42,351 nucleotides of DNA from Escherichia phage vB_EcoM-ep3. The position numbers and the translations under genes were made by a program. Where the stretch lies: sequence record NC_025430.1. One strand, written 5' to 3'. Below, one piece after another: positions 3,715-31,493 of this stretch (position 1 is its first letter; every line of letters starts with the position of its first letter). The notes under the pieces are model-generated. The model had not been told where the DNA came from. It ran no database searches and worked only from the letters and a program-made list of their open reading frames with translations.

Positions 3715-3730
3715 TGAACATTACTACTGG

Positions 3731-5989: not shown

Positions 5990-6032
5990 CAAACAATGCC
6001 CGGTGCGCCGGGCAGTTCTCACAGGTGACACC

Positions 6033-6425: not shown

Positions 6426-6529
6426 AACTGTTCCTGCGTGGCGTCCTGGCGATGCTGCATGATGAATTATTCTGGCTGCTGGTGGTGCTGGCCGCCTGTG
6501 CTTACCTGGTGGGGGTTATCTATGGCTAA
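6422..6529 (+). CDS. small hydrophobic membrane peptide (35 aa)
   Basis: ATG at 6422 to TAA at 6527-6529, frame checked: MKLFLRGVLAMLHDELFWLLVVLAACAYLVGVIYG; below the ORF-track size cutoff; its stop overlaps the start of the next gene. Confidence 0.35.
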   Translation: MKLFLRGVLAMLHDELFWLLVVLAACAYLVGVIYG

Positions 6530-6932
6530 CAAAGAACACGCGTTGCAGAACGCAATCCGCAACGCACTGGCGGGTCGCTGCCTGCTGTTTCGCGCCAACG
6601 TGGGCAAGGCGTACACCAGCAATGACGTGGTGAAGGTGCCGCGCCAGATGCCGGTTGTGATGGGGCCGCGTGACGTGCTGCTGAAAAACGCCAGGCCGTT
6701 TGACACCGGGCTGCCGCCAGGGTTTTCCGACCTGTTCGGCCTGGTCAGTGTAGAAATCACACCTGACATGGTGGGGCAGAAAGTGGCCATCTTCACCGGC
6801 CTGGAAGTCAAAGACGGTGCCCGCGTGTCACCATTGCAGCGAAACTTCATCAACGCGGTGAACGACAACGGGGGCCGCGCCGGTGTTGTGCGGTCAGTGG
6901 ATGACGCTGAAAAACTGGTGTTCGGAAAATGA
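6522..6932 (+). CDS. VRR-NUC domain nuclease
   Basis: Start trimmed to MANKEHALQNAIRNALAG; conserved-looking GFSDLFG...EVKDGARVSPLQRNFINAV region resembles VRR-NUC (PD-(D/E)XK) proteins. Confidence 0.7.
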   Translation: MANKEHALQNAIRNALAGRCLLFRANVGKAYTSNDVVKVPRQMPVVMGPRDVLLKNARPFDTGLPPGFSDLFGLVSVEITPDMVGQKVAIFTGLEVKDGARVSPLQRNFINAVNDNGGRAGVVRSVDDAEKLVFGK

Positions 6933-7007
6933 GCATAAAACACATAGCAGCCGACGCACTGCGCTACAGCGTCGAAACCGGACAATCAATGATGGAGCGG
7001 CTAAACC

Positions 7008-7172
7008 ATGATGACAATAGAAAGCATTCGCAGACTGTTTGCAGAAGCACTGGTGACCAGGAACCACATCACGTTCCTGGCGGCCAAAACGGCAATGTGG
7101 AATCTGAACCGTTACGGCATGTTGACGGCGATTGACGTGGAAAACCTGAAAAAAACGTGGGGTGTTGAATGA
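7008..7172 (+). CDS. hypothetical small protein (54 aa)
   Basis: Frame-checked ORF MMTIESIRRLFAEALVTRNHITFLAAKTAMWNLNRYGMLTAIDVENLKKTWGVE; GGAGCGG upstream; stop overlaps the next start (ATGA). Preferred over the overlapping ORF-track entry 6929..7135. Confidence 0.45.
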   Translation: MMTIESIRRLFAEALVTRNHITFLAAKTAMWNLNRYGMLTAIDVENLKKTWGVE

Positions 7173-7405
7173 ATATTTTCAAAGTAGCAATGCAGCGGCT
7201 GGTTGACGCCTGGAAGTTATCAGCCAGGGAAATCAGCCTGGGTTTTCAAATGGCGCTGGTGCGCGCTGGCTGGCGTCCAAAGGTGCGGTCAATGCAAGTG
7301 GTGCTGGACTATCCGAAGCCAGGGCCACGCCGTTCACGCTTCACCGGCATTGCAGCCATGCGCCGTGAAGCACGCCGCAAACGTAACCGGAGGCACGCAG
7401 CATGA
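7169..7405 (+). CDS. hypothetical protein
   Basis: 78 aa, basic C-terminus; ATGA-coupled to both neighbours. Confidence 0.45.
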   Translation: MNIFKVAMQRLVDAWKLSAREISLGFQMALVRAGWRPKVRSMQVVLDYPKPGPRRSRFTGIAAMRREARRKRNRRHAA

Positions 7406-7626
7406 ACCCGGTAGACTTCATCAAAAAACAAGTCATGGCCGAACTGGTGAAGCAAGGCGCATCACCTGGCACAGCGCAGCACGCGGCTGACTACGCGGCG
7501 CAACAGTACCGCACCACGTCAGCCATCGGCAAAGACCCGTTCGCTGAACTGATACGCCTGGCAGGCGCAATGGCCATGAAGCACCAGGCCGGTTTCCGCT
7601 TCGTGATGCCGCGCGCATCAAAATGA
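7402..7626 (+). CDS. hypothetical protein
   Basis: 74 aa; ATGA overlap with the upstream gene; coding-like composition. Confidence 0.5.
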   Translation: MNPVDFIKKQVMAELVKQGASPGTAQHAADYAAQQYRTTSAIGKDPFAELIRLAGAMAMKHQAGFRFVMPRASK

Positions 7627-7648
7627 CGTAAGATTATTTCAAAAGGTA

Positions 7649-7686
7649 TTTACTTTCGGAAATGCGCCCTGTACTATGGGCGCATT
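7649..7686 (+). promoter_or_regulatory. candidate promoter with overlapping inverted-repeat operator
   Basis: TTTACT (7649-7654), 17-nt spacer, TACTAT (7672-7677); perfect 9-bp inverted repeat AATGCGCCC (7661-7669) / GGGCGCATT (7678-7686) straddles the -10; 20 nt upstream of the HTH gene. Confidence 0.45.
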
Positions 7687-7706
7687 GTTATTACGAGGCT
7701 ATTACT

Positions 7707-7895
7707 ATGGACGAAAGGACCGAACGACTTCACAACATTATGGCTGAACATGGCTTAACCTGCCGCGACGTTGGCCGTTTACTTGGGCGCACTGAACAAA
7801 CGGTGCTTATCTGGCGCTGTAAGGGCGGGAAAGTCATTCCGACCCACCAGCTTGAATTGCTTGAACTGAAACTGAACGCGCAGGCGGAAAAATGA
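7707..7895 (+). CDS. helix-turn-helix transcriptional regulator
   Basis: Trimmed to ATG 7707 (MDERTERL); HTH-like segment LTCRDVGRLLGRTEQTVLIWR; the longer ORF-track start at 7662 lies inside the palindrome. Confidence 0.55.
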   Translation: MDERTERLHNIMAEHGLTCRDVGRLLGRTEQTVLIWRCKGGKVIPTHQLELLELKLNAQAEK

Positions 7896-8122
7896 ACGCC
7901 TGTACCTGGCAGCCAACCACAGTGACGCTGCAAGATGGGCGCGAAGTGTTGAGCGATAGCCGGGAATGGTTGCTGGAATGCGAAGCCAAATACGTTCTGA
8001 ATCAGCCAACCATTGAAGCACGGCGCACCCTGCTGGCAGCGATAGAAAAACGGCGCGGCGCAACAGCCCGCGAAGAACTAGAACAACGCGCACTGGCCAT
8101 ATGGCGCGCTAACAGGCCATAA
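7892..8122 (+). CDS. hypothetical protein
   Basis: 76 aa; ATGA overlap with the HTH gene; immediately upstream of the primase. Confidence 0.5.
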   Translation: MNACTWQPTTVTLQDGREVLSDSREWLLECEAKYVLNQPTIEARRTLLAAIEKRRGATAREELEQRALAIWRANRP

Positions 8123-8134
8123 AATCGGGGTTCT

Positions 8135-10444
8135 ATGAGTGCACAACAAAACTATAAGGATTTGACCGAACAGGAAATTGCAGAAGCACTTTCCTACATC
8201 GACGCCGGTTGCGACCGTGAAACATGGGTGCGCATGGCGATGGCGGTTAAATCGGAACTAGGCGACGGCGGTTTCACCGTCTGGAATGACTGGTCACGCC
8301 AGTCTGACAAGTACAACAGCAAAGACGCGCGCGACACCTGGAAATCAGTGAAGCGTCACGGCGGCATTGGCATTGGCACCCTGATTGGTGAGGCGCAGCA
8401 GTTCGGCTTTTCCCTGAACGATGCAGAACGCACGCCGCTGACAGCGGAAGAAATCGACGCACGCAAGCGCAAGCGCGAAGCCGAAGAAAAGGCAGAGCAG
8501 CAGCGCCGCGCCGAACGTATGGCGCAGGCAGCCGAACAGGCGCGCAACATATGGGAATCAGCCACCGAACTGGAAGGCGATGAACACCCCTATTTGCAGC
8601 GCAAGCAGGTGCAGGCGTTCGGCCTGCGCGTTGGGCGGTTCTGGACCGAAAAGCGCAGCATTGATGGTGCGCTACTGGTTCCTGTGCGTAACATTGACGG
8701 GCAGATCACCAGCTTGCAGGCCATCTTCCCGAACGAAAACCCACAGCTAGGGCGTGACCGTGATTATTTGCCTGGCGGCCAGAAGCGCGGATGCTTCCAC
8801 GTCATAGGCGGCAAGCCGACTGGCGGAAGCCCGGTTATTGTCATCTGTGAGGGCTATTCAACCGGCGCGTCAATCCACCAGGCAACCGGCTACTGCGTTG
8901 TAGTGGCGTTTGATGCCGGTAACGTTCCGACCGTGGCCAAGTTGATGCGCCAGCAGTTCGGACGCGCAACAATTGTTGTGGCAGCCGATAACGACCAGTG
9001 GCACGAAGATGGCAAGCAAAATGATGGCGTTCACTACGCGCGCCAGGCCGCAACCACATGCGGTGGCCTGCTGGTGGTTCCGAAGTTCGCCGCATTAAGC
9101 GACAAGCCGACCGACTTTAACGACCTGCACAACCTGCAAGGGCTGGCAGAAGTTAAGCGGCAGATTAACGCCGCAATACCTGAACCGGCAAATGACAACT
9201 TTCTGCCGCTGGATGCAACGGTCAACCCGTTCATGTACCCGCACATGAGCCACCAGCAAAAGCCATTAAGCACCTGGGAAAACCTGGAATGGCTGCTGGA
9301 ACAGTACGGCATCACGGCGCGATATAACGAAATCAGCAAAGATGTGGTGGTGACCATTCCAGGGCGTGACTACGGCGTTGACGCTGCGGCCAACTGTTCC
9401 CTGGCGGAAGTTTCCAGCCTGTGTGCCCGCAACGGTATGCCAAAAGGTGATGTGGGCGACTACATCAAGCTGATTGGCGTGGCCAACCGTTACAACCCGG
9501 CTGCTGATTTCATCACGTCACGGCCATGGGATGGCGTCAGCCGCATTTATGACCTGGTTGACACCCTGACCACGCCGGAAGGCTTTGACCGCAGCCTGGT
9601 GCTGATGATGGTGCGCCGCTGGCTGATTTCTGCCGTGGCTGCCGTCATGAAGCCAACCGGGTTCTGGTCCAAAGGCGTCCTGGTGTTACAGGGTGACCAG
9701 TCATTGGGGAAAACGTCCTGGTTTAAAGCACTGCTGCCGCCGACCATGCGCGACCTGGTGAAAGATGGCGCGACCATCGACCCTAGCAACAAAGACAGCG
9801 TGACCACCGCGATTGGCCACTGGATGGTTGAGCTGGGCGAACTAGATGCAACGTTCCGCAAGGCTGACATTGCCAGGCTGAAATCCTTCATCAGTTCTGA
9901 CGTGGACATGCTGCGCCGCCCTTATGACCGGCTTGAATCGAAGTACCAGCGCCGAACGGTGTTTTTTGCGTCAGTGAACCCCAAACACTTCCTGGCCGAT
10001 GACACCGGGAACGTTCGCTGGTGGACCATTCCGGTGACCGGCGTGAACTACGCCCACGACATCGACACGCAACAGTTATGGGCAGAAGTGGCGCAACTGT
10101 ACCGTGACGGCGAACGCTGGTGGCTGGATCGTGATGAAGAAGCCATGCTGGAAGGCGTCAACAAGGAACACGAATCCATTGACCCGGTAGAGGAAATGAT
10201 ACTGGCGCGCTTTGAGTGGGGCAGCGAACGCATCAGCGCCTACCGCGAACATACCGCCAGCCAGGTGTTGCAGGAAATCGGATTTGATAAGCCGAACAAG
10301 TCACAGGCCACGCATTGCAGTAACGTGCTGCGCAAGCTGACCGGGCAGGAACCGCGCAAGACGAAAAACGGGCGGTTCTTCAACCTGCCGCCGAAGGTGT
10401 TGCAGCCGGATTACCGGCGACCAGATGACAATTCACCGTTTTGA
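8135..10444 (+). CDS. DNA primase-helicase (P4 alpha-like)
   Basis: 769 aa; N-terminal primase-like region, TOPRIM-like acidic motifs (VIVICEGYSTG, VVAADNDQ), C-terminal NTPase region with Walker A QGDQSLGKTS; size and domain order match P4 alpha-type primases. Confidence 0.88.
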   Translation: MSAQQNYKDLTEQEIAEALSYIDAGCDRETWVRMAMAVKSELGDGGFTVWNDWSRQSDKYNSKDARDTWKSVKRHGGIGIGTLIGEAQQFGFSLNDAERTPLTAEEIDARKRKREAEEKAEQQRRAERMAQAAEQARNIWESATELEGDEHPYLQRKQVQAFGLRVGRFWTEKRSIDGALLVPVRNIDGQITSLQAIFPNENPQLGRDRDYLPGGQKRGCFHVIGGKPTGGSPVIVICEGYSTGASIHQATGYCVVVAFDAGNVPTVAKLMRQQFGRATIVVAADNDQWHEDGKQNDGVHYARQAATTCGGLLVVPKFAALSDKPTDFNDLHNLQGLAEVKRQINAAIPEPANDNFLPLDATVNPFMYPHMSHQQKPLSTWENLEWLLEQYGITARYNEISKDVVVTIPGRDYGVDAAANCSLAEVSSLCARNGMPKGDVGDYIKLIGVANRYNPAADFITSRPWDGVSRIYDLVDTLTTPEGFDRSLVLMMVRRWLISAVAAVMKPTGFWSKGVLVLQGDQSLGKTSWFKALLPPTMRDLVKDGATIDPSNKDSVTTAIGHWMVELGELDATFRKADIARLKSFISSDVDMLRRPYDRLESKYQRRTVFFASVNPKHFLADDTGNVRWWTIPVTGVNYAHDIDTQQLWAEVAQLYRDGERWWLDRDEEAMLEGVNKEHESIDPVEEMILARFEWGSERISAYREHTASQVLQEIGFDKPNKSQATHCSNVLRKLTGQEPRKTKNGRFFNLPPKVLQPDYRRPDDNSPF

Positions 10445-10451
10445 ATAATAA

Positions 10452-10475
10452 CCCGCTTCGGCGGGTTTTGTTTTT
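10452..10475 (+). terminator. intrinsic terminator after the primase gene
   Basis: CCCGC-TTCG-GCGGG hairpin (10452-10465) followed by TTTTGTTTTT. Confidence 0.8.
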
Positions 10476-10540
10476 ATTGATAGGTATAAACGATTATATC
10501 ATTTACATAAGTAAATATAGAATTCATCTATCGAAAACGA

Positions 10541-10565
10541 GACAAACCAAACAAACCAAACAAAG
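10541..10565 (+). repeat. CA-rich tandem repeat leader (CAAACCAAA x2.5)
   Basis: GACAAACCAAACAAACCAAACAAAG directly upstream of the methyltransferase ATG, where no Shine-Dalgarno is visible; shares the 8-mer GACAAACC with the 17-bp motif. Confidence 0.5.
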
Positions 10566-10567
10566 TA

Positions 10568-11545
10568 ATGGGTAGCATTGTGAATAAATACGAATTGCAT
10601 TTAGGTGATTGCCTGGAAGTTATGAAGTCTATTCCAGCCGGTAGCGTTGATTTGGTTCTGTGTGATCCGCCGTATGGCACCGCTGGCGGAATGGGAAAGG
10701 GTGAAGAACGCTATTCACGAATTGCGAACGCTGAATGGGATAACGCTATTTCTCCGCAGGCCATTTTTGAAGAATGCAACCGCGTTTTGCGAACTAACGG
10801 CGCTCTTATTCTGTTCAGCCAGGAACCTTACACCAGCAAGTTAATCACAGCGGCGCATGGAAATCTGCCTTTCAGTTATCGACTAATGTGGCTGAAAGAC
10901 CATTTCTCTAACTCGCTGTTGGTAAATAAAGCGCCTGTTTCATACTTTGAAGATTTAGTGGTGTTCTTCAAGAAATATGACACGCTGGCACAGCATCCGC
11001 TAAGGGATTATGCCAAAAAAATCATGGAATACATTGGCAGAAATATAAAGCAGATAAACACTGATTTAGGTCACAGGCGCGCGGAACACTTTTTTTATGT
11101 TGAATCAACGCAGTTCGGGCTGTGTACTGAAAAGACATACAACCAGATTATTGCGCACTATGGGCTTAGTGTGTGTGACTGGCTTATGACTTATGCTGAA
11201 ATGTTAGAAATTGACCGCAGGTTTGCCCGCAGGTTTAACCTGGCGGATGGTGCAAAATACAAATCTAACGTTCTTCAGTACAAAAAGGATTATACCGGCC
11301 TTCACCCAACACAGAAGCCGGTAGCACTGCTGGCTGACATCATCAGGACATATTCAAACCCTGGCGAAACGGTTCTAGATTTCACTATGGGGAGCGGGTC
11401 AACAGGAGTCGCCTGCATCAATGAAGGCCGTAACTTCATAGGAATTGAACTTGATGAAACCTATTTCCAGACAGCGCAGGGGCGCATAATGGAAGCAGCA
11501 GCCGCAAACGATAACCAGGCAAGTAGCAATTCTGTTGTAGCATAA
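10568..11545 (+). CDS. DNA methyltransferase (N6-adenine/N4-cytosine, beta-class)
   Basis: 325 aa; motif IV LCDPPYGT precedes motif I LDFTMGSGSTG (beta-class order); AT-rich relative to neighbours; no cognate restriction enzyme gene nearby. Confidence 0.85.
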   Translation: MGSIVNKYELHLGDCLEVMKSIPAGSVDLVLCDPPYGTAGGMGKGEERYSRIANAEWDNAISPQAIFEECNRVLRTNGALILFSQEPYTSKLITAAHGNLPFSYRLMWLKDHFSNSLLVNKAPVSYFEDLVVFFKKYDTLAQHPLRDYAKKIMEYIGRNIKQINTDLGHRRAEHFFYVESTQFGLCTEKTYNQIIAHYGLSVCDWLMTYAEMLEIDRRFARRFNLADGAKYKSNVLQYKKDYTGLHPTQKPVALLADIIRTYSNPGETVLDFTMGSGSTGVACINEGRNFIGIELDETYFQTAQGRIMEAAAANDNQASSNSVVA

Positions 11546-11592
11546 CCACCATTCCCCACCAGTGTGGGCCAATAAAAACGAGGTAACACCCG

Positions 11593-12420
11593 ATGAAACA
11601 AGTAACGATTGACAACGTGCGCGAGCGCATAGCGGAACTGGAAATGGTCAACAGCCACGGTGAACTGTCACTGCGCGGCGAATTTGAACTGGCGTGTTTG
11701 CGGATGCTGGCCGATTCAATGGGCGGCGTTGATGATGACGTGCGCAACGTGGTGGCCCTGCTGGAAAACAACGAATGGGCCGAGCACTGCACTAAAACAG
11801 AGCTTGGCCAGCGCCTGGAAAGCGAAATAACCCGCCTGGTTGGGGACGTGCAGCCAGTGCCGGTGGTAAGCGATGCTGACCCATCACTAAACGCCATGAT
11901 GCGTGCGCTTGATGCGTTCTATGCTGATGACTATGTGCCGGAACGTGCCATGCTGGCAGCTTTCAGAATCCTGCTGGCGGATGTGCGTGAAAAGCCAGCG
12001 CCGGTGGTAACTGATGATAGGCTGCTGGAAAACCTTGAAACGCGCATCAAAAGCCTGGAAATCGGTGAACGCAAAGGCGCATTGAGCACGCATCAGGAAA
12101 TCAGCCTTAAGGCGTATCGCCTGACTGTCCAGTGTCTGCGTTCGTCTGCCATCAGTGATGAAACAGACAACACCGCGCAGCAGTTCGAATCGTTGGCTGG
12201 CATCAATGCGAACAAACATCATGACCAGTGGGTGAATTGCAGCGAAAGGCTTCCAGATCGCTTCCGTGACGTTCCTGTGATGCTTTCTGATGGTTCCCAG
12301 CGAGTTGGGCGCATCAATCATAAAGATACCTGGCTGATTGCCAGTTACCACCATACAAAGCACCAATATACAGGCGACGTTGTTATGTGGTTCGACACGC
12401 CTAATCCCACCAGCGAGTGA
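11593..12420 (+). CDS. DUF551-like domain protein
   Basis: 275 aa; GAGG RBS; C-terminal WVNCSERLPD...VMWFDTPNP resembles the DUF551 pattern found at the C-terminus of many lambdoid early proteins. Confidence 0.55.
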   Translation: MKQVTIDNVRERIAELEMVNSHGELSLRGEFELACLRMLADSMGGVDDDVRNVVALLENNEWAEHCTKTELGQRLESEITRLVGDVQPVPVVSDADPSLNAMMRALDAFYADDYVPERAMLAAFRILLADVREKPAPVVTDDRLLENLETRIKSLEIGERKGALSTHQEISLKAYRLTVQCLRSSAISDETDNTAQQFESLAGINANKHHDQWVNCSERLPDRFRDVPVMLSDGSQRVGRINHKDTWLIASYHHTKHQYTGDVVMWFDTPNPTSE

Positions 12421-13507: not shown

Positions 13508-13942
13508 ATGGAATTACCGCGCACTGTGCAGGAAATAGCTGACGTTATTGGCCGTGAACGTGCGCTATATCTTATCGGACAACTACCAAAATTGTGGGTG
13601 CCATCGCAGCAGTACCACAAAGTAATTTTGTATGTGCCAAAGCGGATTCGGCCCAATGACCCCCTGGTGAAAATTCTTGGATGGAGTGACGCCAGCAAGA
13701 TGGTGCAGCACTTCGGTGGTGAAATGCTTCACCCGGCTAATTGCGAATACATTTACCGCCGTTTCATCCACAGCAGCATCAAGCGGATGCACAGCGAAGG
13801 AATGGACGCAAAAGCCATTGCGGAACTGCTGGACGTTTCAGAACGCACCGTGAAGCGGCACTGCACTGACAAACCCCACAAAGACACATCACCTGCAAAT
13901 GACAACACTCCCGAACGACTACTAACCGCTATGGGGCAATGA
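13508..13942 (+). CDS. Mor/C-family-like transcriptional activator
   Basis: 144 aa; GGGGG RBS; central FGGE...P segment and C-terminal HTH (MDAKAIAELLDVSERTVKRH) resemble the Mu Mor/C late-activator layout; sits immediately upstream of the lysis and structural genes. Confidence 0.55.
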   Translation: MELPRTVQEIADVIGRERALYLIGQLPKLWVPSQQYHKVILYVPKRIRPNDPLVKILGWSDASKMVQHFGGEMLHPANCEYIYRRFIHSSIKRMHSEGMDAKAIAELLDVSERTVKRHCTDKPHKDTSPANDNTPERLLTAMGQ

Positions 13943-15715: not shown

Positions 15716-16240
15716 TTGGCTAAAACAATAAAAGGCCGAACAGTAAACCGCAGCGGCCTGGCGGAAGTTTTCGGGGTAGCACCGCCAACAGTTGACCAGT
15801 GGCGAAAAGACGGCGCGCCCTACGTAACACTTGGCGGGCGTGGTAAAGAATGGGAGTACGACACCGCGCAGGTGGCGGCCTGGTTGCGTGAACGCGATGT
15901 GAAGGCGGCCACCGGCGACGTGATGGCGGATGAAACGGAATTGAAGCGCCGCAAGCTGGCAGCCGAAACCGAAAAAGCAGAACTGGAACTGGCCAAAGCC
16001 AAAGGCGAAGTGGCACCACTGGACCAGGTTGAACGCGCCGTTGCCCGCGCCTTCGCGGAAGTGCGCGCCGGGATGCGCAACCTGCCACAGCGCACCGTTT
16101 CAATGCTTATCGGTGAAACCGATGAACGCCGGTTCAAATCGGTGATGATGGGCGAAATTGACGAAGTGCTGAAATCACTGGTGACCGCTTCCCTGCTGGA
16201 TGGCTATGACGAAGGGGGCGACGGTGACAGCGAAGAATAA
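15716..16240 (+). CDS. terminase small subunit (lambda Nu1-like)
   Basis: About 174 aa; N-terminal HTH (LAEVFGVAPPTVDQWRKDGAPY) and overall layout resemble lambda Nu1; TTG start at 15716 after AAGGCGG (start uncertain); 3' end overlaps the large-subunit gene. Confidence 0.78.
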   Translation: MAKTIKGRTVNRSGLAEVFGVAPPTVDQWRKDGAPYVTLGGRGKEWEYDTAQVAAWLRERDVKAATGDVMADETELKRRKLAAETEKAELELAKAKGEVAPLDQVERAVARAFAEVRAGMRNLPQRTVSMLIGETDERRFKSVMMGEIDEVLKSLVTASLLDGYDEGGDGDSEE

Positions 16241-18248
16241 CCCGTTTGCCAACATTGAAGGCATTGACCAGGCTATCCGGCGCGCACAACAACAATTGTT
16301 GCCGCCGCCAGACATGAAGCCGTCAGAGTGGGCGCAGGCTAATATCCGCATTCCGTCTGGCAACGCCGTGCCAGGACCGCTGCGCCTGGATAACGCGCCA
16401 TACCAGCGCGAACCAATGGACATGCTGGTTGACCCTGATTGCTACCGTGTAACGCTGATGTGGGGCGCGCAGGTGGGCAAAACCATGCTGGCACTGTGCG
16501 TGCAGGCGTACAGCGTAGCCGCTGAACCGCGCAGCCAGATGATGATGCAGCCAAGCCAGGATGACTTGCGCACCTGGCTGGAAACGAAATTCAACCCTCT
16601 GGCGGAAGAATGCGCGCCGGTAAACAACGCCATTGCCAAACCGCGTGGCCGCGACGGGGTGAACAACCAGAAAATGAAATCATACCCTGGCGGGTTCTTG
16701 ATGTTCGCCTGGTCCGGTTCGCCAAAGACCATGCGCGGGCGTTCAGCGCCGCTGATTGTATGTGACGAGGTAGACGGATATGAACGAACCAGCGAAGGGC
16801 ACCCGGTTGGCCTGCTGTGGCAGCGTTCTGCCACCTTCGGTGACCAGCGGTTTTTGCTGGAAATCAGCACCCCTACCCTTAAAGGTGAATCGTACATCGA
16901 AAAAGCGTATGAAATGGGCGACCAGCGGCACTTCTTTGTTTGCTGCCCGCACTGTGACGATCACGTTACGCTTGAATGGGAAAACGTCAAATGGGATGGC
17001 CAGCGGGAAACTGACGCGGAAACGCTGGCGGCCATCGAAGAACAGAAGCCGGAAACAGCGCACCTGTATTGCCCATCGTGCGGCGCGCAGTGGAATGACG
17101 GCGAACGGATAGCGGCTATCCGTCAGGCCGAAGAAAAGGGCGCAGGCTGGAAGGCGTCCAGGCCGTTTGAAGGGCACGCAAGCTACCACCTGAACGAACT
17201 ATACAGCACATTCCGCAAAGTACCGGCCATCGTGCGTGACTACCTGGACAAGCTGAAAACGGACGACCTGCAAACCTTCACCAACGTCAGCCTGGCGCGC
17301 ACCTGGGAAGAAGAAGGCGACAAGGTTGACCCGGATTCACTGATGGCACGCCGCGAGGAATACGCCGCGCAGGTGCCTGCTGGTGGGCTGTATATCACCG
17401 CAGGCATAGACATGCAGGTTGACCGCCTGGAATGTGAGGTGGTGGCCTGGGGCGTTGGTGAAGAATCCTGGTCATTGGGTTACCACGTCCTGTGGGGCGA
17501 CCCTCTGACGCCAGATCCGTGGGATGCGCTTGATGACCTGCTGGCGGAAACCTACCAGCACGAAACCGGCGCAGTGCTGCCGATCATGGCCGCCTGCCTG
17601 GATACCGGCGGCACCAGCGGTTACACGCAGGCCGCCTATGACTACGCCAGAGGGCGCACAGGCCGCCGCCTGTTTGCCATCAAAGGAGTGGGCGGTTGGG
17701 GTCGTCCTATCGTGGAGAAGCCGCAGCGCAAGCAATCCGGGAAGGATGCCCGCAAAGTGGATTTATTCCTGGTGGGCACCGATGAAGCCAAGCTGATAAC
17801 TGCACGCCGTTTAAACAAGACGGCACCGGGGCCAGGTTATTGCCACTTCCCTGCTGACCGCGATGAAGAATGGTTTAAGCAAATCACCGCTGAAAAGCTG
17901 ACCATGCGTTACGTGAAGGGCCAGCCAATCCGCGAGTGGAAGAAACCCGACCGGGCGCGCAACGAAGCACTGGACTGCCGCAACTATGCGCTGGCCGCGC
18001 TTAAAATCATGCAGCCGTCATTCCGCCGCCTGGCTGAAAAGTTTGGCGTAGCGAACGACAACGCGCCACCGGAACGCCGCAAGCGGCTTCCGAACGTCAA
18101 ACCCATCGTGAAACCGGTGGAAGTGCCGCAACCGGCCAATGACAAACCCCAAGAAGAAGAAAAACAGCAAGTCACAGAGACTAAGCCCATTAAACGTTCC
18201 GCCAGGGCATCCAAACGCCGTGGCGGTGGATGGGTTAGCCGCTGGTGA
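16200..18248 (+). CDS. terminase large subunit (lambda gpA-like)
   Basis: 682 aa; Walker A-like MWGAQVGKT, CPHCDDH zinc-binding-like segment; overlaps the small-subunit gene as in lambda Nu1/A. Confidence 0.9.
   Translation: MAMTKGATVTAKNNPFANIEGIDQAIRRAQQQLLPPPDMKPSEWAQANIRIPSGNAVPGPLRLDNAPYQREPMDMLVDPDCYRVTLMWGAQVGKTMLALCVQAYSVAAEPRSQMMMQPSQDDLRTWLETKFNPLAEECAPVNNAIAKPRGRDGVNNQKMKSYPGGFLMFAWSGSPKTMRGRSAPLIVCDEVDGYERTSEGHPVGLLWQRSATFGDQRFLLEISTPTLKGESYIEKAYEMGDQRHFFVCCPHCDDHVTLEWENVKWDGQRETDAETLAAIEEQKPETAHLYCPSCGAQWNDGERIAAIRQAEEKGAGWKASRPFEGHASYHLNELYSTFRKVPAIVRDYLDKLKTDDLQTFTNVSLARTWEEEGDKVDPDSLMARREEYAAQVPAGGLYITAGIDMQVDRLECEVVAWGVGEESWSLGYHVLWGDPLTPDPWDALDDLLAETYQHETGAVLPIMAACLDTGGTSGYTQAAYDYARGRTGRRLFAIKGVGGWGRPIVEKPQRKQSGKDARKVDLFLVGTDEAKLITARRLNKTAPGPGYCHFPADRDEEWFKQITAEKLTMRYVKGQPIREWKKPDRARNEALDCRNYALAALKIMQPSFRRLAEKFGVANDNAPPERRKRLPNVKPIVKPVEVPQPANDKPQEEEKQQVTETKPIKRSARASKRRGGGWVSRW
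18141..18157 (+). repeat. 17-bp motif GACAAACCCCAAGAAGA, copy 1
   Basis: Exact copy inside the terminase 3' end, in frame encoding DKPQEE; 114 bp upstream of the GTG start at 18255. Confidence 0.9.
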
Positions 18249-18254
18249 TAAATA

Positions 18255-18794
18255 GTGAAAAACTGCCAAGTACCGCAGAAAATTACTGCTGGATTGACAT
18301 TTGAGACGCGCCTGACGCTTCCCGGCTATCCTGCAACTGAATGGGCTGTTCAGCTACTGCTGCGCGGCCCGCAGTCAATTAACATCAACGCCGTCGCTGA
18401 TGGTAACGATCACGTCATCCGCGCAGCCGCTGGCGTCACTGCAACGTGGCCAGCAGGCGATTACTGGTATTCGCTGCGCGCGACCAAAGGCGATGACGTT
18501 ATGGAGGCCGGAAACGGCCAGATTACCATCCTGCCAGACCTGGCCAGCGCCAGTGATGGATTTAACGGGAAAACTCACGCGCAACGCACCCTGGAAGCCA
18601 TTGAAGCGGTCATAGAGAAGCGCGCGACAATGGACCAGGAACGCTACCGCATCAATAACCGCGAGTTATATCGCACCCCGATTGCGGATTTGCTGAAACT
18701 GCGCGACTTGTACCGCCTGGAAGTAGCACGCGAAAAACAGGCGCAGTGCGGCAAAAACCCGTTCGGGCGTAAAGTTCGGGTGAGCCTTCGCTGA
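18255..18794 (+). CDS. putative head-tail joining protein (gpW-like C-terminal region, N-terminal extension)
   Basis: 179 aa; GTG start with GGTGA RBS; sits between terminase and portal where lambda gpW lies; C-terminal segment loosely gpW-like. Confidence 0.4.
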   Translation: MKNCQVPQKITAGLTFETRLTLPGYPATEWAVQLLLRGPQSININAVADGNDHVIRAAAGVTATWPAGDYWYSLRATKGDDVMEAGNGQITILPDLASASDGFNGKTHAQRTLEAIEAVIEKRATMDQERYRINNRELYRTPIADLLKLRDLYRLEVAREKQAQCGKNPFGRKVRVSLR

Positions 18795-20350
18795 TGAAAC
18801 TGTGGCCATTTACCAGAAACAAGCCTGCCGAACAGGCACAACAGCCGCGCACGCGGCGTTTACCGCTTAACCGCCTGGCGTCCCGTATGTTTACCGGTGC
18901 CAGTGTTGACCGTTTTGGCACCGCGTGGGGTACACAGCCGCTGACGGCTGATGAAGTCATTACCAAAAATCAACGCATCCTGGTGGCCCGTTCCCGCGAA
19001 CAGGCCGCCAACAATGATTATGCCAAAAAGTTCCTGCGTCTGTGCCGCACAAACATTGTGGGGCCAAAAGGCGTTCTGTTGCAGGCAAAAAGCCAGGATA
19101 ACACCGGAAAACTGGACACCCTGGCGAATGAAGCCATTGAACTGGCGTTTGACGCATGGGGCAAAAAGACCAACTGTGACGTGACCGGTAAGTTGTCCTG
19201 GCGCGCCATCCAGGCCGCCTGCGTCAACAGCGTGGCCAAAGACGGTGAATTCTTCGTGCGCCTGGTGTTTGGGGCTGACGCAGGGCCGTGGGGCTTCTCG
19301 CTGCAACTGCTGGACCCGCAACGCTGTCCTGTGGACATGGTTGAAGATCGACTGCCAAACGGAAATTTCATCCGCCAGGGAATCGAGTTTAACCGATACG
19401 GGCGGCCTATCGCGTATTATTTCAGCACAGTTGATGAATCGGATGAAAACTACCGTTGGGCTGGGCGTGACTTCGTGCGCGTGCCTGCGGATGAAATCCT
19501 GCACGGTTTCTTTGATGACATGGTGGGCCAGAAACGCGGCCTGCCCTGGATGGCCACCAGCCTGTTTCGTATGCGCCACCTGGGCGGCATGGAAGAAGCC
19601 GCACTGGTCAACGCGCGAGCAGGTGCCAACAAAATGGGGTTCATCGAATGGGATGAAAACGGCGCTGGACCTGAATTCGACGATGAAGACGAACTGATCA
19701 TTGACAGTGAACCGGGTGAATTCCAGGTGCTGCCACAGGGCGCACGCATCAAAGACTGGTCACCGCAATACCCCAACGGCGAATTTGCCGTGTTCACCAA
19801 ACAGATGCTGCGCGGCATGGCTTCTGGCATGGGCGTGGCTTACAACAACCTGGCCAACGACCTGGAAGGCGTCAATTTCAGTTCCATCCGACAGGGCACG
19901 CTTGACGAGCGCGAAAGCTGGAAGGAATTGCAGGAATGGCTAATCGAAAACCTGCACCAGCCTGTTTTTGACGCCTGGCTGCCGCGCGCCCTGCTGTCTG
20001 GACGCATCACGGTGAAAGGCCGCAGCCTGAAACCGGAACGCATAGACCGTTACAGCAATATTGAATGGCAGCCACGCCGTTGGGCCTGGATTGACCCGTC
20101 ATCTGACGTGGAAGCGGCTGAAAAATCAAAAAACAACATGCTGCAATCGCCTGGCCGCATCATCCGTGAAGGTGGCAGCGACCCTGACACCGTTTGGAAG
20201 GAAACCGCTAGCGACGTGGCACGCATGATTGAGGCGTACACGCAGCACGGTATCAGCCGAGAAATGGCGGAAAAACTGGTCATGCAAAGCATGGGCATGG
20301 ACAAAACACTGTTAATGGGGCAGCAAAATGCAGAAAAACCTGCTGAATAG
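18794..20350 (+). CDS. portal protein (lambda gpB-type)
   Basis: 518 aa, directly after the terminase/gpW-like genes; size and position match lambda-type portals. Confidence 0.88.
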   Translation: MKLWPFTRNKPAEQAQQPRTRRLPLNRLASRMFTGASVDRFGTAWGTQPLTADEVITKNQRILVARSREQAANNDYAKKFLRLCRTNIVGPKGVLLQAKSQDNTGKLDTLANEAIELAFDAWGKKTNCDVTGKLSWRAIQAACVNSVAKDGEFFVRLVFGADAGPWGFSLQLLDPQRCPVDMVEDRLPNGNFIRQGIEFNRYGRPIAYYFSTVDESDENYRWAGRDFVRVPADEILHGFFDDMVGQKRGLPWMATSLFRMRHLGGMEEAALVNARAGANKMGFIEWDENGAGPEFDDEDELIIDSEPGEFQVLPQGARIKDWSPQYPNGEFAVFTKQMLRGMASGMGVAYNNLANDLEGVNFSSIRQGTLDERESWKELQEWLIENLHQPVFDAWLPRALLSGRITVKGRSLKPERIDRYSNIEWQPRRWAWIDPSSDVEAAEKSKNNMLQSPGRIIREGGSDPDTVWKETASDVARMIEAYTQHGISREMAEKLVMQSMGMDKTLLMGQQNAEKPAE

Positions 20351-22376
20351 CATCATTGGGGCCGAATTTACCCGCAAATCAGACAGCAAAACGCTGCCTG
20401 ATTTCAACAAAGGCGGGCTGGTGCGCACTATGGAAGTGCGCAAGTTTGACACCGAAAAACGCACCGTAGAACTGGCGTTTTCCTCCGAAATCGAGGTTGA
20501 ACGCTGGTACGGTATCGAAATTCTGGACCATTCGCCGGAAAGCGTGCGCCTGGACCGTCTGCGTGACGGTGGGGCGCTGCTGGTTGACCACGATTGGACT
20601 GACCAGGTGGGCGTTGTTGAATCCGTCAGCATTGACGCTGACCGCCGGGGGCGGGCTGTGGTGCGCTTTGGCCGAAGTGCACGCGCTGACGAGATTTTCC
20701 AGGACATCGTTGACGGCATTCGCAAGCATGTTTCCGTTGGCTACCGCGTGTTAGCGGCCAAGCTACAGGAAACGCGTGACGAGTGGCAGGATGTCTACCG
20801 CATCACTGAATGGGAACCGTTCGAAATTTCAATTGTGAGCGTTCCCGCTGACACCAGCGTTGGCATTGGGCGTGCGTTTGACAAACCCCAAGAAGAACAA
20901 CGCGGCATCAAATCCGATACTGCGGGCACCGTAGAGGTTCCAGCACCAAAAAAATCATTTGAGGATTCACGAATGTTAGAAAAAATTCTGCGCGACGCTG
21001 CCGGTAACCTGGTGCGCGCGATGGTAGACGAGAAAGGCAACATCACGCAGGTTCTGGAAATGCTGGAACGTGCTGGCGATGATGCGCGCAACGCTGAACA
21101 GCGTGGCCGTGAAGCGGAAAAGGCGCGCGTGCGTTCCATCACTGAAATGGGCGAGAAGTACAACGCACGTGACCTGGCTTTGAAAGCTATTGGCGAAGGC
21201 ACCACCGCCGAAGATTTCCAGCGTTCCTTGCTGGACCACCTGAACAAGCCGAAAGACCCGGCACAACCGGCTGATGACACCCGTTCCGGCAGCAAGCCGC
21301 TGTCAGAAATGCCGTCCAGCGTGATTGGTATGTCTGACAAAGACATCCGCCGCTATAGCATTTTCAACGTGGTTCGCGCGCTGGCTAACCCGAACGATGC
21401 AGCCGCACAGCGTGCCGCAGCGTTTGAAATCGAATGCAGCCACGCAGCGCAACAGCAGTATGGCCGCAGTGCAAAAGGCATCCTGATCCCTGACGATGTT
21501 CTGCGCGCATTCAACGCTGGTGGCGCACCGAACACCCCGACAGGTGCACAGACCGGTTCCAACCTGGTTGGCACTGACTTTATGGCCAGTTCGTTCATCG
21601 ACCTGCTGCGCCCGCGTACCACCATCATGCGCCTGGCGCGTACTATGGGCGGCCTGGTTGGCAACGTTGAAATTCCGAAACAGACTGGCGGCGCTACTGC
21701 CTACTGGATTGGTGAAGGTGATGACGCAACCGAAACCACGCCGACCATCGGCCAGCTTAGTTTGTCACCGAAAACCGTTGCGGCTTACACCGACATTACC
21801 CGCCGCCTGCTGATGCAATCCACCCCGGATGCGGAAGCTATCGTGCGCGGTGACCTGGTGGCAGCTATCGCGCAGGCGATTGATTACGCTGGCTACTACG
21901 GCACCGGCACCAGCAACCAGCCGCTGGGTCTGGCGAACTACACCGGCATTAATGCGGTAGACTTCGCAGCAGCCAACCCGACTTATGCGGAACTGGTGCA
22001 GATGGAAACCGAAATCGCGGCTGACAACGCTGACGTGAACAACATGGCATATGTGCTGAACGCGCGTGGCCGTGGTGCAGCGAAAACCACGCCGAAGTTT
22101 GCCAGTGGTTCTTCCGTGGCTGACGCTGGCGTGATTTGGGAACCGGGCAACACCCTGAACGGTTACCGCGCCGAAGTTACCAACCAGGTTCAGGATGGTG
22201 ACGTGTTCTTTGGCAACTTCGCTGACTTGGTTGTTGGTATGTGGGGCGGCCTGGACATGACGGTTGACCCGTATAGCCTGAGCAAATCCGGTGGCCTGCG
22301 CATCGTGGTATTCCAGGACGTGGATTTTGCGGTGCGCCGCGTTGAATCCTTCTGCCTGGGCCGCAACGCAGCATAA
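20328..22376 (+). CDS. prohead protease-scaffold-major capsid fusion protein (HK97-fold)
   Basis: 682 aa; N-terminal about 200 aa prohead-protease-like, central charged coiled-coil, C-terminal about 350 aa HK97-like major capsid region; internal in-frame ATG at 20973 with GAGGA RBS. Confidence 0.85.
   Translation: MQKNLLNSIIGAEFTRKSDSKTLPDFNKGGLVRTMEVRKFDTEKRTVELAFSSEIEVERWYGIEILDHSPESVRLDRLRDGGALLVDHDWTDQVGVVESVSIDADRRGRAVVRFGRSARADEIFQDIVDGIRKHVSVGYRVLAAKLQETRDEWQDVYRITEWEPFEISIVSVPADTSVGIGRAFDKPQEEQRGIKSDTAGTVEVPAPKKSFEDSRMLEKILRDAAGNLVRAMVDEKGNITQVLEMLERAGDDARNAEQRGREAEKARVRSITEMGEKYNARDLALKAIGEGTTAEDFQRSLLDHLNKPKDPAQPADDTRSGSKPLSEMPSSVIGMSDKDIRRYSIFNVVRALANPNDAAAQRAAAFEIECSHAAQQQYGRSAKGILIPDDVLRAFNAGGAPNTPTGAQTGSNLVGTDFMASSFIDLLRPRTTIMRLARTMGGLVGNVEIPKQTGGATAYWIGEGDDATETTPTIGQLSLSPKTVAAYTDITRRLLMQSTPDAEAIVRGDLVAAIAQAIDYAGYYGTGTSNQPLGLANYTGINAVDFAAANPTYAELVQMETEIAADNADVNNMAYVLNARGRGAAKTTPKFASGSSVADAGVIWEPGNTLNGYRAEVTNQVQDGDVFFGNFADLVVGMWGGLDMTVDPYSLSKSGGLRIVVFQDVDFAVRRVESFCLGRNAA
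20880..20896 (+). repeat. 17-bp motif GACAAACCCCAAGAAGA, copy 2
   Basis: Exact copy inside the capsid fusion ORF, same reading frame (DKPQEE); 93 bp upstream of the internal start at 20973. Confidence 0.9.
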
Positions 22377-22382
22377 TGAACA

Positions 22383-22402
22383 TGGCCGCTTCGGCGGCCA
22401 TA
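22383..22402 (+). terminator. stem-loop after the capsid gene (weak terminator/stabiliser)
   Basis: 8-bp stem ATGGCCGC-TTCG-GCGGCCAT just after the capsid stop; no clean T-run. Confidence 0.35.
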
Positions 22403-22427
22403 GTCTTATCTGACAGGAGAAGTTTTT

Positions 22428-22730
22428 ATGTCTGGTACTTATGTACTGAAATTGACTTCCGCTATTGCTATCAGCGGCGAAGTCATGAAAGCGGGTTCAC
22501 TGGTTGAGGTTTCAGAGCTTGAGGCTAAAAACCTGTTGTCGCGCGGCAAGGCAGAGATGCACGACGAACAACCAGCACGTGATGACGATGTTGAAATCAC
22601 GAAAATGAACAAAGATCAGCTTATCGCTATTGCAGAGCAGATGGAAATTGAAGGCGCTGACAAGATGACCAAAGCGCAGTTGATTGAAGCCATCGAAGCC
22701 GCAGGCGAAATCAAAGAGGGTGACGAATAA
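22428..22730 (+). CDS. hypothetical head-associated protein
   Basis: 100 aa; strong AGGAGA RBS; acidic with a C-terminal helical motif (KMNKDQLIAIAEQMEIEGADKMTKAQLIEAIEA). Confidence 0.5.
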   Translation: MSGTYVLKLTSAIAISGEVMKAGSLVEVSELEAKNLLSRGKAEMHDEQPARDDDVEITKMNKDQLIAIAEQMEIEGADKMTKAQLIEAIEAAGEIKEGDE

Positions 22731-23086
22731 TGCAACACGGCACATCTGTAACGGTTCTGGCCGCACCAGCAACAATCACAGCCAGCGGCAACGGTTCAGC
22801 CGTCAACGTTGGTGATTATCATGGCCTGTGCCTGCTTCACCTTAACGGCATCGGCACTGCTGGCACCACCACTGTAAGCCTGCAACACAGTGATGACGGT
22901 TCAACCAATTGGGCTGACGTACCCAACACCACTTTTGCGCAGATCAGCACCGCAGCTAAGGCTGACACGATCCTGTTTAATGCTGACCGATTCAAAAAAT
23001 TTGTCCGCGTGAAGGATGTTTCAGCCAGTTCCGGTTCGGCAATCCGCAGCGTTGTGCTGGTTGGCAATAAGCGGGAATCACAGTAA
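22730..23086 (+). CDS. hypothetical virion protein
   Basis: 118 aa; translationally coupled to the upstream gene; Thr/Ser/Gly-rich. Confidence 0.45.
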   Translation: MQHGTSVTVLAAPATITASGNGSAVNVGDYHGLCLLHLNGIGTAGTTTVSLQHSDDGSTNWADVPNTTFAQISTAAKADTILFNADRFKKFVRVKDVSASSGSAIRSVVLVGNKRESQ

Positions 23087-25178: not shown

Positions 25179-25181
25179 CCT

Positions 25182-25198
25182 GACAAACCCCAAGAAGA
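25182..25198 (+). repeat. 17-bp motif GACAAACCCCAAGAAGA, copy 3
   Basis: Exact copy in the intergenic gap 3 nt after the gpV stop and in gpV's frame; followed by hairpin ATGCGGGC-ATCATT-GCCCGCAT (25211-25232) that holds the gpW start; 49 bp upstream of gpW. Confidence 0.9.
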
Positions 25199-25231
25199 TA
25201 AACCATCACCCATGCGGGCATCATTGCCCGC

Positions 25232-25570
25232 ATGAAAGGAACAAACGCGGCCACAGGCGCGCCGCTGGATGGTTTAGACCATCTGCGCCAATCCATAAGA
25301 GACATACTCACGACGCCAATTGGCACGCGAGTGATGCGCCGCGACTACGGCAGCCGGTTGCCCTACCTGGTTGATGCACCGATGAACCGCAGCACGCTGC
25401 TGGACCTGTACGCAGCGACTGCGGAAGCACTGGAAGCCTGGGAACCACGCATCAGCGTGCAGCAGGTGACAGCAACATCAGCAGAACCAGGACGCGTGGA
25501 ATTGTCCATTACCGGCGAATACCTGCCAGACGGCAAACAAATAACAATTGACGGCATAGTGGTGACATAA
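25232..25570 (+). CDS. baseplate assembly protein W (P2 gpW-like)
   Basis: 112 aa; LDHLRQSIRDILTTPIGTRVMRRDYGS closely follows the P2 gpW pattern as I recall it. Confidence 0.88.
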   Translation: MKGTNAATGAPLDGLDHLRQSIRDILTTPIGTRVMRRDYGSRLPYLVDAPMNRSTLLDLYAATAEALEAWEPRISVQQVTATSAEPGRVELSITGEYLPDGKQITIDGIVVT

Positions 25571-31401: not shown

Positions 31402-31404
31402 ACG

Positions 31405-31421
31405 GACAAACCCCAAGAAGA
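31405..31421 (+). repeat. 17-bp motif GACAAACCCCAAGAAGA, copy 4
   Basis: Exact copy 4 nt after the terminator T-run, intergenic; 89 bp upstream of the tail sheath start; followed by inverted repeat ACTGTG..CACAGT (31456-31469). Confidence 0.9.
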
Positions 31422-31493
31422 AGCCACGCACGGTTCCTGCGACCATCACACTGCGAATTTTCACTGTGTGCACAGTTAATAGGAAACCGAATA

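Follow-up and report, generated by a model that had tools for sequence, protein, structure and literature searches.

A fused protease–scaffold–capsid gene of Escherichia phage vB_EcoM-ep3 with a conserved candidate internal start and a predicted activator-dependent late promoter in its linker

Results

Architecture and conservation of the fusion gene

The window analyzed here is a 42,351-nucleotide stretch of DNA from Escherichia phage vB_EcoM-ep3 (NC_025430.1), a Jilinvirus-type coliphage. On its + strand, the ORF at 20328–22376 comprises 682 codons plus the stop and encodes a protein of 682 aa (74.2 kDa; the long form), in which protease, linker, scaffold and capsid parts follow one another and which matched phrog_617 over its full length (E = 1.4e-212). 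The first 23 nt of this ORF are shared with the end of the portal gene (18794–20350). The first-pass annotation had read this region as a single ORF with protease and capsid in one frame. The ORF was indeed present and uninterrupted, and the Pfam matches, the PHROG matches and the predicted fold agreed on its two enzymatic and structural ends. A sequencing error splitting the ORF was ruled out by the intact ORF in the records of relatives; the same stretch is one annotated gene in seven phage records with 95–97% nucleotide identity, and the translations are uninterrupted. Furthermore, a full-length uninterrupted ORF was found in 73 of the 80 IMG/VR loci retrieved (586 relatives were detected). 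The triple fusion is the rule across a large family, of which viral metagenomes contain hundreds of members. The fusion architecture itself is not new, because it has already been described for the relatives Murka and MD8. A stand-alone scaffold-capsid gene was sought by a word-indexed protein search with aa 216–411, which gave one fragment only, and tblastn of the scaffold region against phage records gave matches inside fused genes only; thus, these searches revealed no natural split of the gene at the junction.

The prohead protease domain is located at 20415–20843 (+ strand; aa 30–172). The segment aa 84–176 matched Pfam Peptidase_S78 (PF04586; MEROPS S78/U35) with 38.6 bits against a cutoff of 21, and PHROG matches to head maturation protease (phrog_80 and phrog_3244) were also obtained. 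The modest Pfam score and its restriction to aa 84–176 would fit a decaying or regulatory remnant, such that the scaffold-capsid product alone matters and another protease performs maturation. We consider this reading scarcely credible. The domain was predicted at pLDDT above 90, and no other protease family was matched among the head-region ORFs scanned (16200–23086). In addition, H88 and S136 were invariant in a comparison set of 75 non-redundant homologues (39–91% identity), and many core positions were at least 90% conserved, down to 39% identity. By analogy with HK97 gp4, H88 and S136 are the putative catalytic pair.

Scaffold and capsid parts

The HK97-fold major capsid body (21591–22373, + strand) matched Pfam Phage_capsid (PF05065) at aa 410–678 with 162 bits, and the capsid part matched PDB entry 8gta with E = 2.5e-53. 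Foldseek of the predicted fold returned the capsids of R4C, GTA, D3 and HK97 (prob 1.00). The gene of the relative R4C encodes 629 aa, and its virion chain in 8gta consists of residues 362–629, the first 361 residues being removed. Residue 2 of that virion chain aligns to aa 411 of the vB_EcoM-ep3 protein.

Between protease and capsid lies a scaffold-like region (20979–21509, + strand), for which the predicted structure gave a three-strand module at aa 218–247 and helices at aa 251–306 and 337–394. We retained the scaffold reading of the first-pass annotation for this middle region because it is mostly helical and its counterpart is missing from the solved R4C virion capsid. The region showed no resemblance in sequence to the HK97 delta domain, nor was one expected. 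The following disordered segment (21513–21590, + strand; aa 396–421) is the expected site of maturation cleavage and of the start of the N-arm, and the exact cleavage positions in vB_EcoM-ep3 are predicted ones.

A conserved start codon and Shine-Dalgarno sequence in the linker

The protease domain is followed by a disordered linker (20856–20975, + strand; aa 177–216; pLDDT below 50), which ends exactly at Met216 and holds the putative regulatory signals. We confirmed that the in-frame ATG at 20973–20975 (codon 216) is preceded by the Shine-Dalgarno (SD) string GAGGA at 20961–20965 (+ strand) with a 7-nt spacer. The calculated anti-SD duplex is −6.0 kcal/mol at this ATG versus −4.7 kcal/mol at the annotated start, 20328. 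Initiation at 20973 would yield a short form (20973–22376, + strand; 467 aa, 49.9 kDa) with a scaffold-capsid layout as in HK97 gp5. The ORF contains no stop codon between the scaffold and capsid parts, and therefore the short product would include the capsid protein.

The linker amino acids do not align between distant homologues. An in-frame start codon was nevertheless present in the linker of all 75 homologues (GTG in two, otherwise ATG). A linker ATG occurred in 74 of the 75, against 73% expected from Met frequency, and none of 200,000 simulations reached this number, although the homologues are kin, so that such statistics overstate independence, even with linkers themselves too diverged to align. 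The homologue without a linker ATG has GTG with AGGAGG instead, and one homologue has GTG with an SD where its relatives have ATG. Similarly, the protease/scaffold junction contains an in-frame ATG in all 14 annotated phage homologues, and in most of them a GAGG-type SD accompanies it, while the linker residues differ.

The anti-SD energy at the junction had a median of −6.0 kcal/mol, compared with −2.4 kcal/mol for 952 other in-frame ATGs (p = 8e-22), and this strength equaled that at the top candidate for the genuine gene start in the homologue set. Within its own linker, the junction SD ranked top (KS p = 2e-18); acidic, Gly-rich linkers favor GAGG-like strings, which this rank test addresses only in part. 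A 41-nt segment at the junction start was unstructured (mean z +1.6, p = 5e-25) and AT-rich (GC 46% vs 59.5%). The strength of the junction SD was also correlated with that of the next gene's SD in the same locus (rho 0.41, p = 4e-4), and a weak junction SD was observed in 10 of 71 loci. Met lies at the N-terminal edge of the folded module in 28 of the 29 homologues having the module, and there may be a protein-level reason for the junction Met in this module-bearing subgroup only. Two further in-frame ATGs, at codons 232 and 245, were rejected as starts, as their SDs are weak and close relatives have Leu or Val at these positions. The SD region also resembles positions 5831–5847 over 17 nt, which was judged a chance partial match.

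These observations bear on another reading of the gene, in which all capsid subunits are the 682-aa fusion, and the ATG and the SD-like string either arise from linker composition or provide a translational pause for folding of the protease domain. One product is annotated for the gene in all records, published accounts of relatives give a single propeptide, and purine-rich linkers can mimic SDs. Composition fails, however, to explain a start codon in every one of the 75 diverged linkers, or the replacement of ATG by GTG with the SD retained. Moreover, the SD equals those of real gene starts and follows the SD usage of the locus, RNA structure and GC content reach a local minimum at the start, and a pause site would need no start codon. 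A single polyprotein is thus very unlikely in our estimation. The internal start with its own ribosome-binding site, as proposed in the first-pass annotation, is strongly supported by the comparison, in which a start codon, an SD and an unstructured initiation region are conserved family-wide within an unconserved linker. The annotated start has, across the family, an SD of quality similar to that of the junction; therefore, the ratio of long to short form is not readable from sequence.

A repeated box and a −10-like hexamer upstream of the internal start

A 17-bp motif, GACAAACCCCAAGAAGA, starts at 20880, and this copy, the second, lies 93 nt upstream of 20973, as noted in the first-pass annotation; other copies start at 13868, 18141, 25182 and 31405, all on the + strand. 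The motif had been mentioned there as a side remark, and the present analysis places it within a promoter-like element positioned to serve the internal start. The element is bipartite and has no −35 motif; it consists of a box of 18–19 nt, a spacer of 19–20 nt and a −10-like hexamer. In the linker, the phage-specific 18-nt box TGACAAACCCCAAGAAGA (20879–20896, + strand), a proposed late-activator site, is read in frame as D-K-P-Q-E-E, and the −10-like hexamer GATACT (20916–20921, + strand) follows 19 nt after the box, with a predicted transcription start at ~20928.

Sister elements were found at three other + strand positions. The box with GAGACT at 18140–18182 lies in the sequence for the C-terminus of the terminase large subunit and precedes the genes for head-tail joining, the portal and the long form. 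The box with CATCAT at 25181–25224 lies between the genes for baseplate V and W, and the element at 31404–31446 immediately follows a terminator hairpin and precedes the tail sheath gene (31494). A degenerate fifth element with two mismatches and AACACT (13867–13909, + strand) is located in the 3′-terminal part of the candidate activator gene described below, upstream of the lysis and terminase genes.

Four perfect box copies per genome were present at the same four positions, and the box sequence differs among the window together with Bas97, Arya, PPpW-3 and Mica, so that the copies show concerted evolution. In these four genomes, nAnA(A/C)T was found 19–20 nt after the box in 18 of 18 copies. 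The pattern nAnnnT at offset +19 occurred at 16 of the 18 sites and in 15 of 19 further-tested homologues, compared with 0–3 at other offsets. One box copy lies directly 3′ of a terminator in four of four genomes. The ATG of gpW (25232) is 7 nt past the hexamer in vB_EcoM-ep3 (6–7 nt across genomes) and has no SD, and the gpW mRNA is therefore predicted to be leaderless. As two of the boxes are within coding sequence, the regulatory motif would dictate the same peptide in the terminase tail and in the protease linker, which belong to unrelated proteins; the peptides encoded there are DKPQEE, DTPHEE, ANPQEE or EIPREE, depending on the lineage.

The candidate specificity factor is encoded at 13508–13942 (+ strand), at the head of the late region. 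This ORF of 144 aa matched phrog_836 ('late transcriptional activator') with E = 1.1e-30 and has a C-terminal HTH; matches to HTH and sigma-70 region 4 were near threshold, and neither a Pfam Mor match nor a PDB relative was found. The box would be a promoter element bound by this product. The box, its spacing, the terminator, the gpW start and the activator gene are what a class II activator-dependent promoter predicts.

Other identities of the box were considered and rejected. A generic sigma-70 scan called no promoter near the box, and TGACA as the −35 motif of a classical sigma-70 promoter was ruled out by its spacing of ~32 nt to the hexamer. Because of its length and its lack of dyad symmetry, a phage RNA polymerase promoter was also considered for the box, and yet no RNA-polymerase-like gene was found, the largest early ORF being a primase/VapE-type protein. 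As for an SD or other RNA signal, the boxes of Mica and PPpW-3 carry an SD-like GAGGA on their 3′ side, but no suitably spaced start codon follows it, and the boxes of the window and Arya would make only weak SDs.

The box may alternatively be no promoter at all. The short form would then be translated from ATG 20973 on a shared polycistronic late mRNA, and the box would be an RNA-processing, protein-binding, recombination or other DNA signal. This alternative fits the weakness of the −10-like hexamers, which the scan did not call. Likewise, distant relatives, VP882 among them, keep the SD and ATG without a repeated box in the linker, indicating that the internal start needs no internal promoter. 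The linker of VP882 contained no multi-copy box; therefore, an internal promoter is clade-specific at best. On the other side, the spacing of box to hexamer is constant at every site with a unique offset peak, a copy follows a terminator hairpin in all four genomes, and the gpW start codon stands just past the hexamer with no SD. A late-activator-family gene is present as well, and the other signal types do not explain the whole pattern. We therefore regard an internal translation start alone as unlikely and proceed with the activator-dependent promoter.

Discussion

We propose that the gene is a nested pair, with a long form and an internally started short form, the latter most likely having its own activator-dependent late transcript, and we consider this reading quite probable. 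Initiation at ATG 20328 would give a 74-kDa protease-scaffold-capsid polyprotein, and initiation at ATG 20973, with the SD GAGGA, a 50-kDa scaffold-capsid protein with the layout of HK97 gp5. Because the scaffold and shell domains are shared, the two forms should co-assemble in the procapsid with their N-terminal parts inside, and a minority of long subunits would carry the protease into the procapsid covalently. Once assembly is complete, the protease would excise itself together with every scaffold region, and a shell protein of ~29 kDa beginning near residue 400–410 would remain. The transcript of the short form would most likely start at ~20928, contain the SD at 20961, the ATG at 20973 and the stop codon, and end at a GC-rich tetraloop hairpin (22382–22401, + strand). 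This hairpin, just after the stop, may act as a terminator or mRNA stabilizer that closes the short-form unit, and equivalent hairpins were found in Arya, PPpW-3, Mica and VP882. That both products are made, and in what ratio, is what we infer from these sequence features. A further proposal, which we hold with somewhat more caution but still favor, is that the 120-nt linker-coding stretch is a complete control region with activator box, −10 hexamer, 5′ UTR, SD and start codon, such that the nested gene would be its own late unit, and box and activator would co-evolve to form an orthogonal pair within every lineage.

A fused gene with a single product would place a protease and ~45 kDa of cargo on each of the several hundred shell subunits. 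A conserved internal start, possibly with a promoter, would be a simple answer, and the relative frequency of initiation at the two starts of the ORF would set the protease dose. For annotation, the single CDS line would conceal two products. If the proposal is true, nature would offer a set of orthogonal late promoters in the box/activator pairs of the different lineages, and the linker would be a clear example of regulatory DNA that constrains protein sequence in disordered regions. Literature searches on protease-capsid fusions, the phage names and the box sequences found the fused architecture described and nothing on internal initiation or the box; transcript or initiation data, and a proteomic or blot report of two co-terminal products, were likewise not found for this phage or its relatives.

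The closest published architectures are those of Foxunavirus Murka/FoX and of MD8-like Pseudomonas phages, in which, as here, protease, scaffold and HK97-fold capsid are encoded in one gene of ~684–693 aa. The capsid gene of Murka/FoX is a homologue with ~48% identity, and that of FoX2 aligns over the full length. MD8 combines a ClpP/lambda-C-type protease with a Mu-like capsid protein, unlike the S78 fusion here, and since both types differ, the MD8 fusion is independent. The Murka and MD8 papers describe one product, with no mention of an internal start or promoter (the word 'internal' occurs 0 times in the MD8 paper).

HK97 gp4/gp5 belong to the same Pfam S78 protease family and capsid fold, and the proposed short form has the gp5 layout with a cleavable N-terminal scaffold. 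However, HK97 uses two separate genes and recruits the protease non-covalently, whereas the two are fused here; the scaffold region here is ~190 aa and opens with a small beta module, compared with 102 aa in HK97.

The predicted late regulon is similar to the Mu Mor/C-type and P2 Ogr-type regulons. In those, a small activator with a C-terminal HTH serves about four late promoters without a −35 motif, through a site overlapping the −35 region. The present system differs in that the box is non-dyad, two sites are inside coding sequence and the activator has no Pfam Mor match.

Nested protease/scaffold genes are established in lambda (C/Nu3) and Mu (I/Z), where a long ORF begins with the protease and a second start inside it, in frame and equipped with an RBS, gives rise to the C-terminal scaffold alone, and the common C-terminus directs both products to the procapsid. 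The fusion gene would work like these families but is a variant of them. The two products of lambda and Mu have only the scaffold in common, and the capsid gene is separate; here, with no separating stop, the shared part is scaffold plus capsid protein, and thus the protease would arrive attached to a shell subunit. The proteases also belong to different families, S49-type in lambda and S78 here. In herpesviruses, the UL26/UL26.5 pair consists of a protease-scaffold ORF and a nested in-frame gene with its own promoter inside it; the short product is the more abundant, and the UL26 protease has an assemblin-related fold. That system relies on eukaryotic transcription and a separate capsid protein, in contrast to the present gene, whose promoter is predicted from sequence. 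The fusion gene therewith resembles lambda C/Nu3 and herpesvirus UL26/UL26.5, apparently extended to the capsid protein, and would provide a bacterial parallel to UL26/UL26.5.

Architecture and maturation of the fusion protein

Re-reading of the sequence placed the 682-codon ORF at 20328-22376, and Pfam matched both Peptidase_S78 (aa 84-176) and Phage_capsid (aa 410-678) to it, in agreement with the first-pass annotation, which had put protease and capsid in one frame at this location. PHROG 617 matched the ORF end to end (E=1e-212), and a further match was phrog_4523, named 'major head and protease protein'. The first 23 nt of the ORF overlap the lambda-type portal gene (18794-20350) at its 3' end. 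The phage is a Jilinvirus-type (Iiscvirinae) coliphage, and the ORF DNA is 95-97% identical to that of HeidiAbel_Bas97, PT1, ECO1230-10, ECOO78, and Alux-21. Matches to the fusion protein with at least 80% coverage were obtained by tblastn in 55 phage records, whose hosts include Pseudomonas, Burkholderia, Xanthomonas, Vibrio, Rhodobacter, and Synechococcus. An IMG/VR scan gave 586 relatives, and a full-length single ORF was present in 73 of the 80 retrieved. The fused gene of PPpW-3 is annotated as 'major capsid protein and peptidase U35', and the fused gene has already been described for the relative Murka and put forward for MD8. Thus, the protease-scaffold-capsid fusion is the norm of the family and was previously described, so that the architecture by itself is not new; the intact fused ORFs in relatives also rule against a sequencing error, which had been named as a possible refutation. 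At one homologous IMG/VR locus (L055, 1501-4411), 655 residues of the fusion protein are matched by tblastn over 2.9 kb, compared to the 1.9-kb ORF used; the extra sequence lies downstream and is a duplication or insertion.

An AlphaFold model of the fusion protein, built on 75 homologues (mean pLDDT 80), predicted a beta-rich protease domain (aa 30-172), a disordered linker (aa 177-216), a three-strand module (aa 218-247), helices (aa 251-306 and 337-394), a second disordered stretch (aa 396-421), and a capsid fold (aa 422-682), the last of which matched the R4C, GTA, D3, and HK97 capsids in Foldseek. Two residues, H88 and S136, do not vary within the family. The full-length protein has a calculated mass of 74.2 kDa, residues 216-682 one of 49.9 kDa, and residues 410-682 one of ~28.8 kDa. 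The capsid gene of roseophage R4C encodes 629 aa, and its codon 189 is an internal ATG preceded by GGAGGA. In the solved R4C virion (8gta), the capsid chain comprises exactly residues 362-629, which align with aa 411-678 of the fusion protein in the window. Therefore, in at least one family member, the mature shell is without protease and scaffold.

Conserved initiation signals at the protease/scaffold junction

The internal ATG at 20973 is codon 216 and in frame, and GAGGA at 20961-20965 leaves a 7-nt spacer to it, as originally noted. Met216 is the final residue of the predicted disordered linker, placing the start at a domain boundary. All 14 aligned annotated homologues have an in-frame ATG at this junction, although the neighbouring amino acids differ, and the sequences found 6-10 nt before it include GAGGA, GAGGG, GAAGGG, AGAGGT, and AGAGGA. 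In a larger set of 75 homologues, mutually <90% identical and 39-91% identical to the window, a linker ATG was found in 74, compared to 73% predicted from their own Met frequency, and none of 200,000 simulations reached the observed count. Most of these linkers contain exactly one Met. The homologue without a linker ATG (L025) carries AGGAGG-N5-GTG, and another (L029) has GAGGGG-N8-GTG where its relatives have ATG, its sole linker ATG being 40 codons downstream.

Anti-SD duplex energy at the junction start had a median of -6.0 kcal/mol (<=-4.4 in 83%), compared to -2.4 for 952 other in-frame ATGs and -2.5 for 999 out-of-frame ATGs (p ~1e-21). This strength is equalled by the best candidate true start of these genes; within the window, the score was -6.0 at the internal site versus -4.7 at the annotated start. 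A composition control placed the SD near the top within its own linker (KS p=2e-18), with a median of 13% of positions as good, a value close to the floor imposed by the scoring window. For 84% of homologues, the -20..+20 region of the junction start ranked in the fifth of the ORF with the least structure (mean z +1.6, p=5e-25), and its GC content was 46% versus 59.5%. Moreover, a weak junction SD goes with a weak SD of the next gene (rho 0.41, p=4e-4), that is, host-specific usage. Judged by sequence, the junction has the features typical of a bacterial initiation region, and these are retained where the sequence is otherwise unalignable.

A repeated box and its hexamer

The 17-mer copy reported 93 nt upstream of the internal ATG does begin at 20880, and it belongs to a longer repeat, the box TGACAAACCCCAAGAAGA, found at five sites in the window, all on the + strand: 18140, in the terminase large-subunit tail; 20879, in the linker of the fusion gene; 25181, between baseplate V and W; 31404, directly after a terminator and ahead of the sheath gene; and, with two mismatches, 13867, in the 3' end of ORF 13508-13942. 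Bas97 carries an identical box at the 3 equivalent sites lying in the part of its genome compared (bases 1-11661). The box differs from that of the window in Arya (TGACACCCCGCACGAAGA; L094 2509, 5261, 9534, 16418), PPpW-3 (CGGCAAACCCACAAGAGGA; L095 2560, 5377, 9702, 14070, 41712), and Mica (CGGAAATCCCACGGGAGGA; L096 2442, 5260, 9173, 16272), each of which carries its own box, without mismatch, at the four sites occupied by perfect copies in the window; PPpW-3 has an additional degenerate fifth copy in its homologue of ORF 13508. Since the box, 18-19 nt long, is identical within a genome and divergent between genomes, this pattern points to recognition by a phage-encoded factor.

A -10-like hexamer, nAnA(A/C)T, follows 18 of 18 box copies in the four genomes. 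The spacing is 19 nt except at the V-W copy in the window and in Arya, where it is 20 nt. In 15 of 19 further linkers, A2/T6 was found at offset +19, and every other offset scored 0-3. The resulting box position, ~-49 to -32, is that of a class II activator. This bipartite element evolves in concert across its positions. Because the box copies in the terminase and fusion genes are read in the same frame (window 18140-18161 and 20879-20900), the terminase C-terminal tail and the protease linker share a hexapeptide, which co-varies by phage (DKPQEE, DTPHEE, ANPQEE, EIPREE). Regulatory DNA appears to dictate protein sequence in disordered regions.

Predicted late promoters and a candidate activator

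The box sites are probably a set of activator-dependent late promoters. The predicted linker unit consists of the box (20879-20896), GATACT (20916-20921), a transcription start near 20928, the SD at 20961, the ATG at 20973, the stop at 22374-22376, and a hairpin at 22382-22401. The window, Arya, PPpW-3, Mica, and VP882 all have a GC tetraloop hairpin 3' of the capsid gene. The pre-sheath copy lies 3-6 nt after the terminator in all four genomes. The ATG of baseplate W (gpW) lies 6-7 nt after the hexamer in 4/4 genomes (window 25219-25234) and is without an SD (-2.5), which suggests a leaderless gpW mRNA. The annotated gpW start of PPpW-3 (9744) overlaps the hexamer (L095 9740-9755), and an in-frame ATG at 9753 fits better.

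No phage RNA polymerase gene was found in the window. ORF 13508-13942 directly precedes the lysis and terminase genes, and its placement ahead of the lysis cassette resembles that of lambda Q. The 144-aa product of this ORF was assigned to PHROG 836, 'late transcriptional activator' (E=1e-30), and its C-terminal HTH gave near-threshold scores for sigma-70 region 4 and LuxR-type models. The VP882 linker contained no repeated box; the putative internal promoter would therefore be confined to the clade with the three-strand beta module, whereas the internal SD and ATG are family-wide.

Other features of the genome

Two small genes 3' of the capsid gene are inconsistently annotated: 22428-22730 is 'endonuclease VII' by PHROG versus Rho_N plus DUF7210 by Pfam, and 22730-23086 has a weak F5/8 type C match. 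Since a jellyroll cement protein is mentioned for the capsid gene block of Murka in the paper on that phage, the product of one of these two genes could be a head decoration protein. In the early region, ORF 5264-5989 has an Nmad5 (nucleotide modification associated domain 5) domain and neighbours a helicase, a VRR-NUC nuclease, and a DNA methylase (10568-11545); this region could represent a DNA-modification module. Both window ends contain a 33-nt terminator-like sequence, AAAAAAAACCCCGCCATAACGGCGGGTTGATTA (2-34 and 42319-42351; 88% identity), and the window could be either an entire genome whose ends overlap or a repeat-bounded element.

Proposed model and comparison with known systems

We propose that the ORF 13508 product would bind the box and drive transcription, and that a long form from 20328 and a short form from 20973 would both be made and co-assemble, the long form being the minority product; the precursor would then be cleaved at positions that we infer. 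In our own rough crowding estimate, for which the shell was taken to be T=7 with ~415 subunits, ~45 kDa of N-terminal cargo on all subunits would amount to ~19 MDa in an HK97-size procapsid, compared to ~9 MDa with mostly short forms. A protease-free subunit is therefore plausible, although this estimate is not proof.

No description of the internal start or the box was found in the searchable literature, whose coverage is incomplete. The fusion gene arrangement works like those of lambda C/Nu3, Mu I/Z, and herpesvirus UL26/UL26.5. In contrast to these, however, the shared C-terminal part here also contains the capsid protein, and the short product therefore resembles HK97 gp5.
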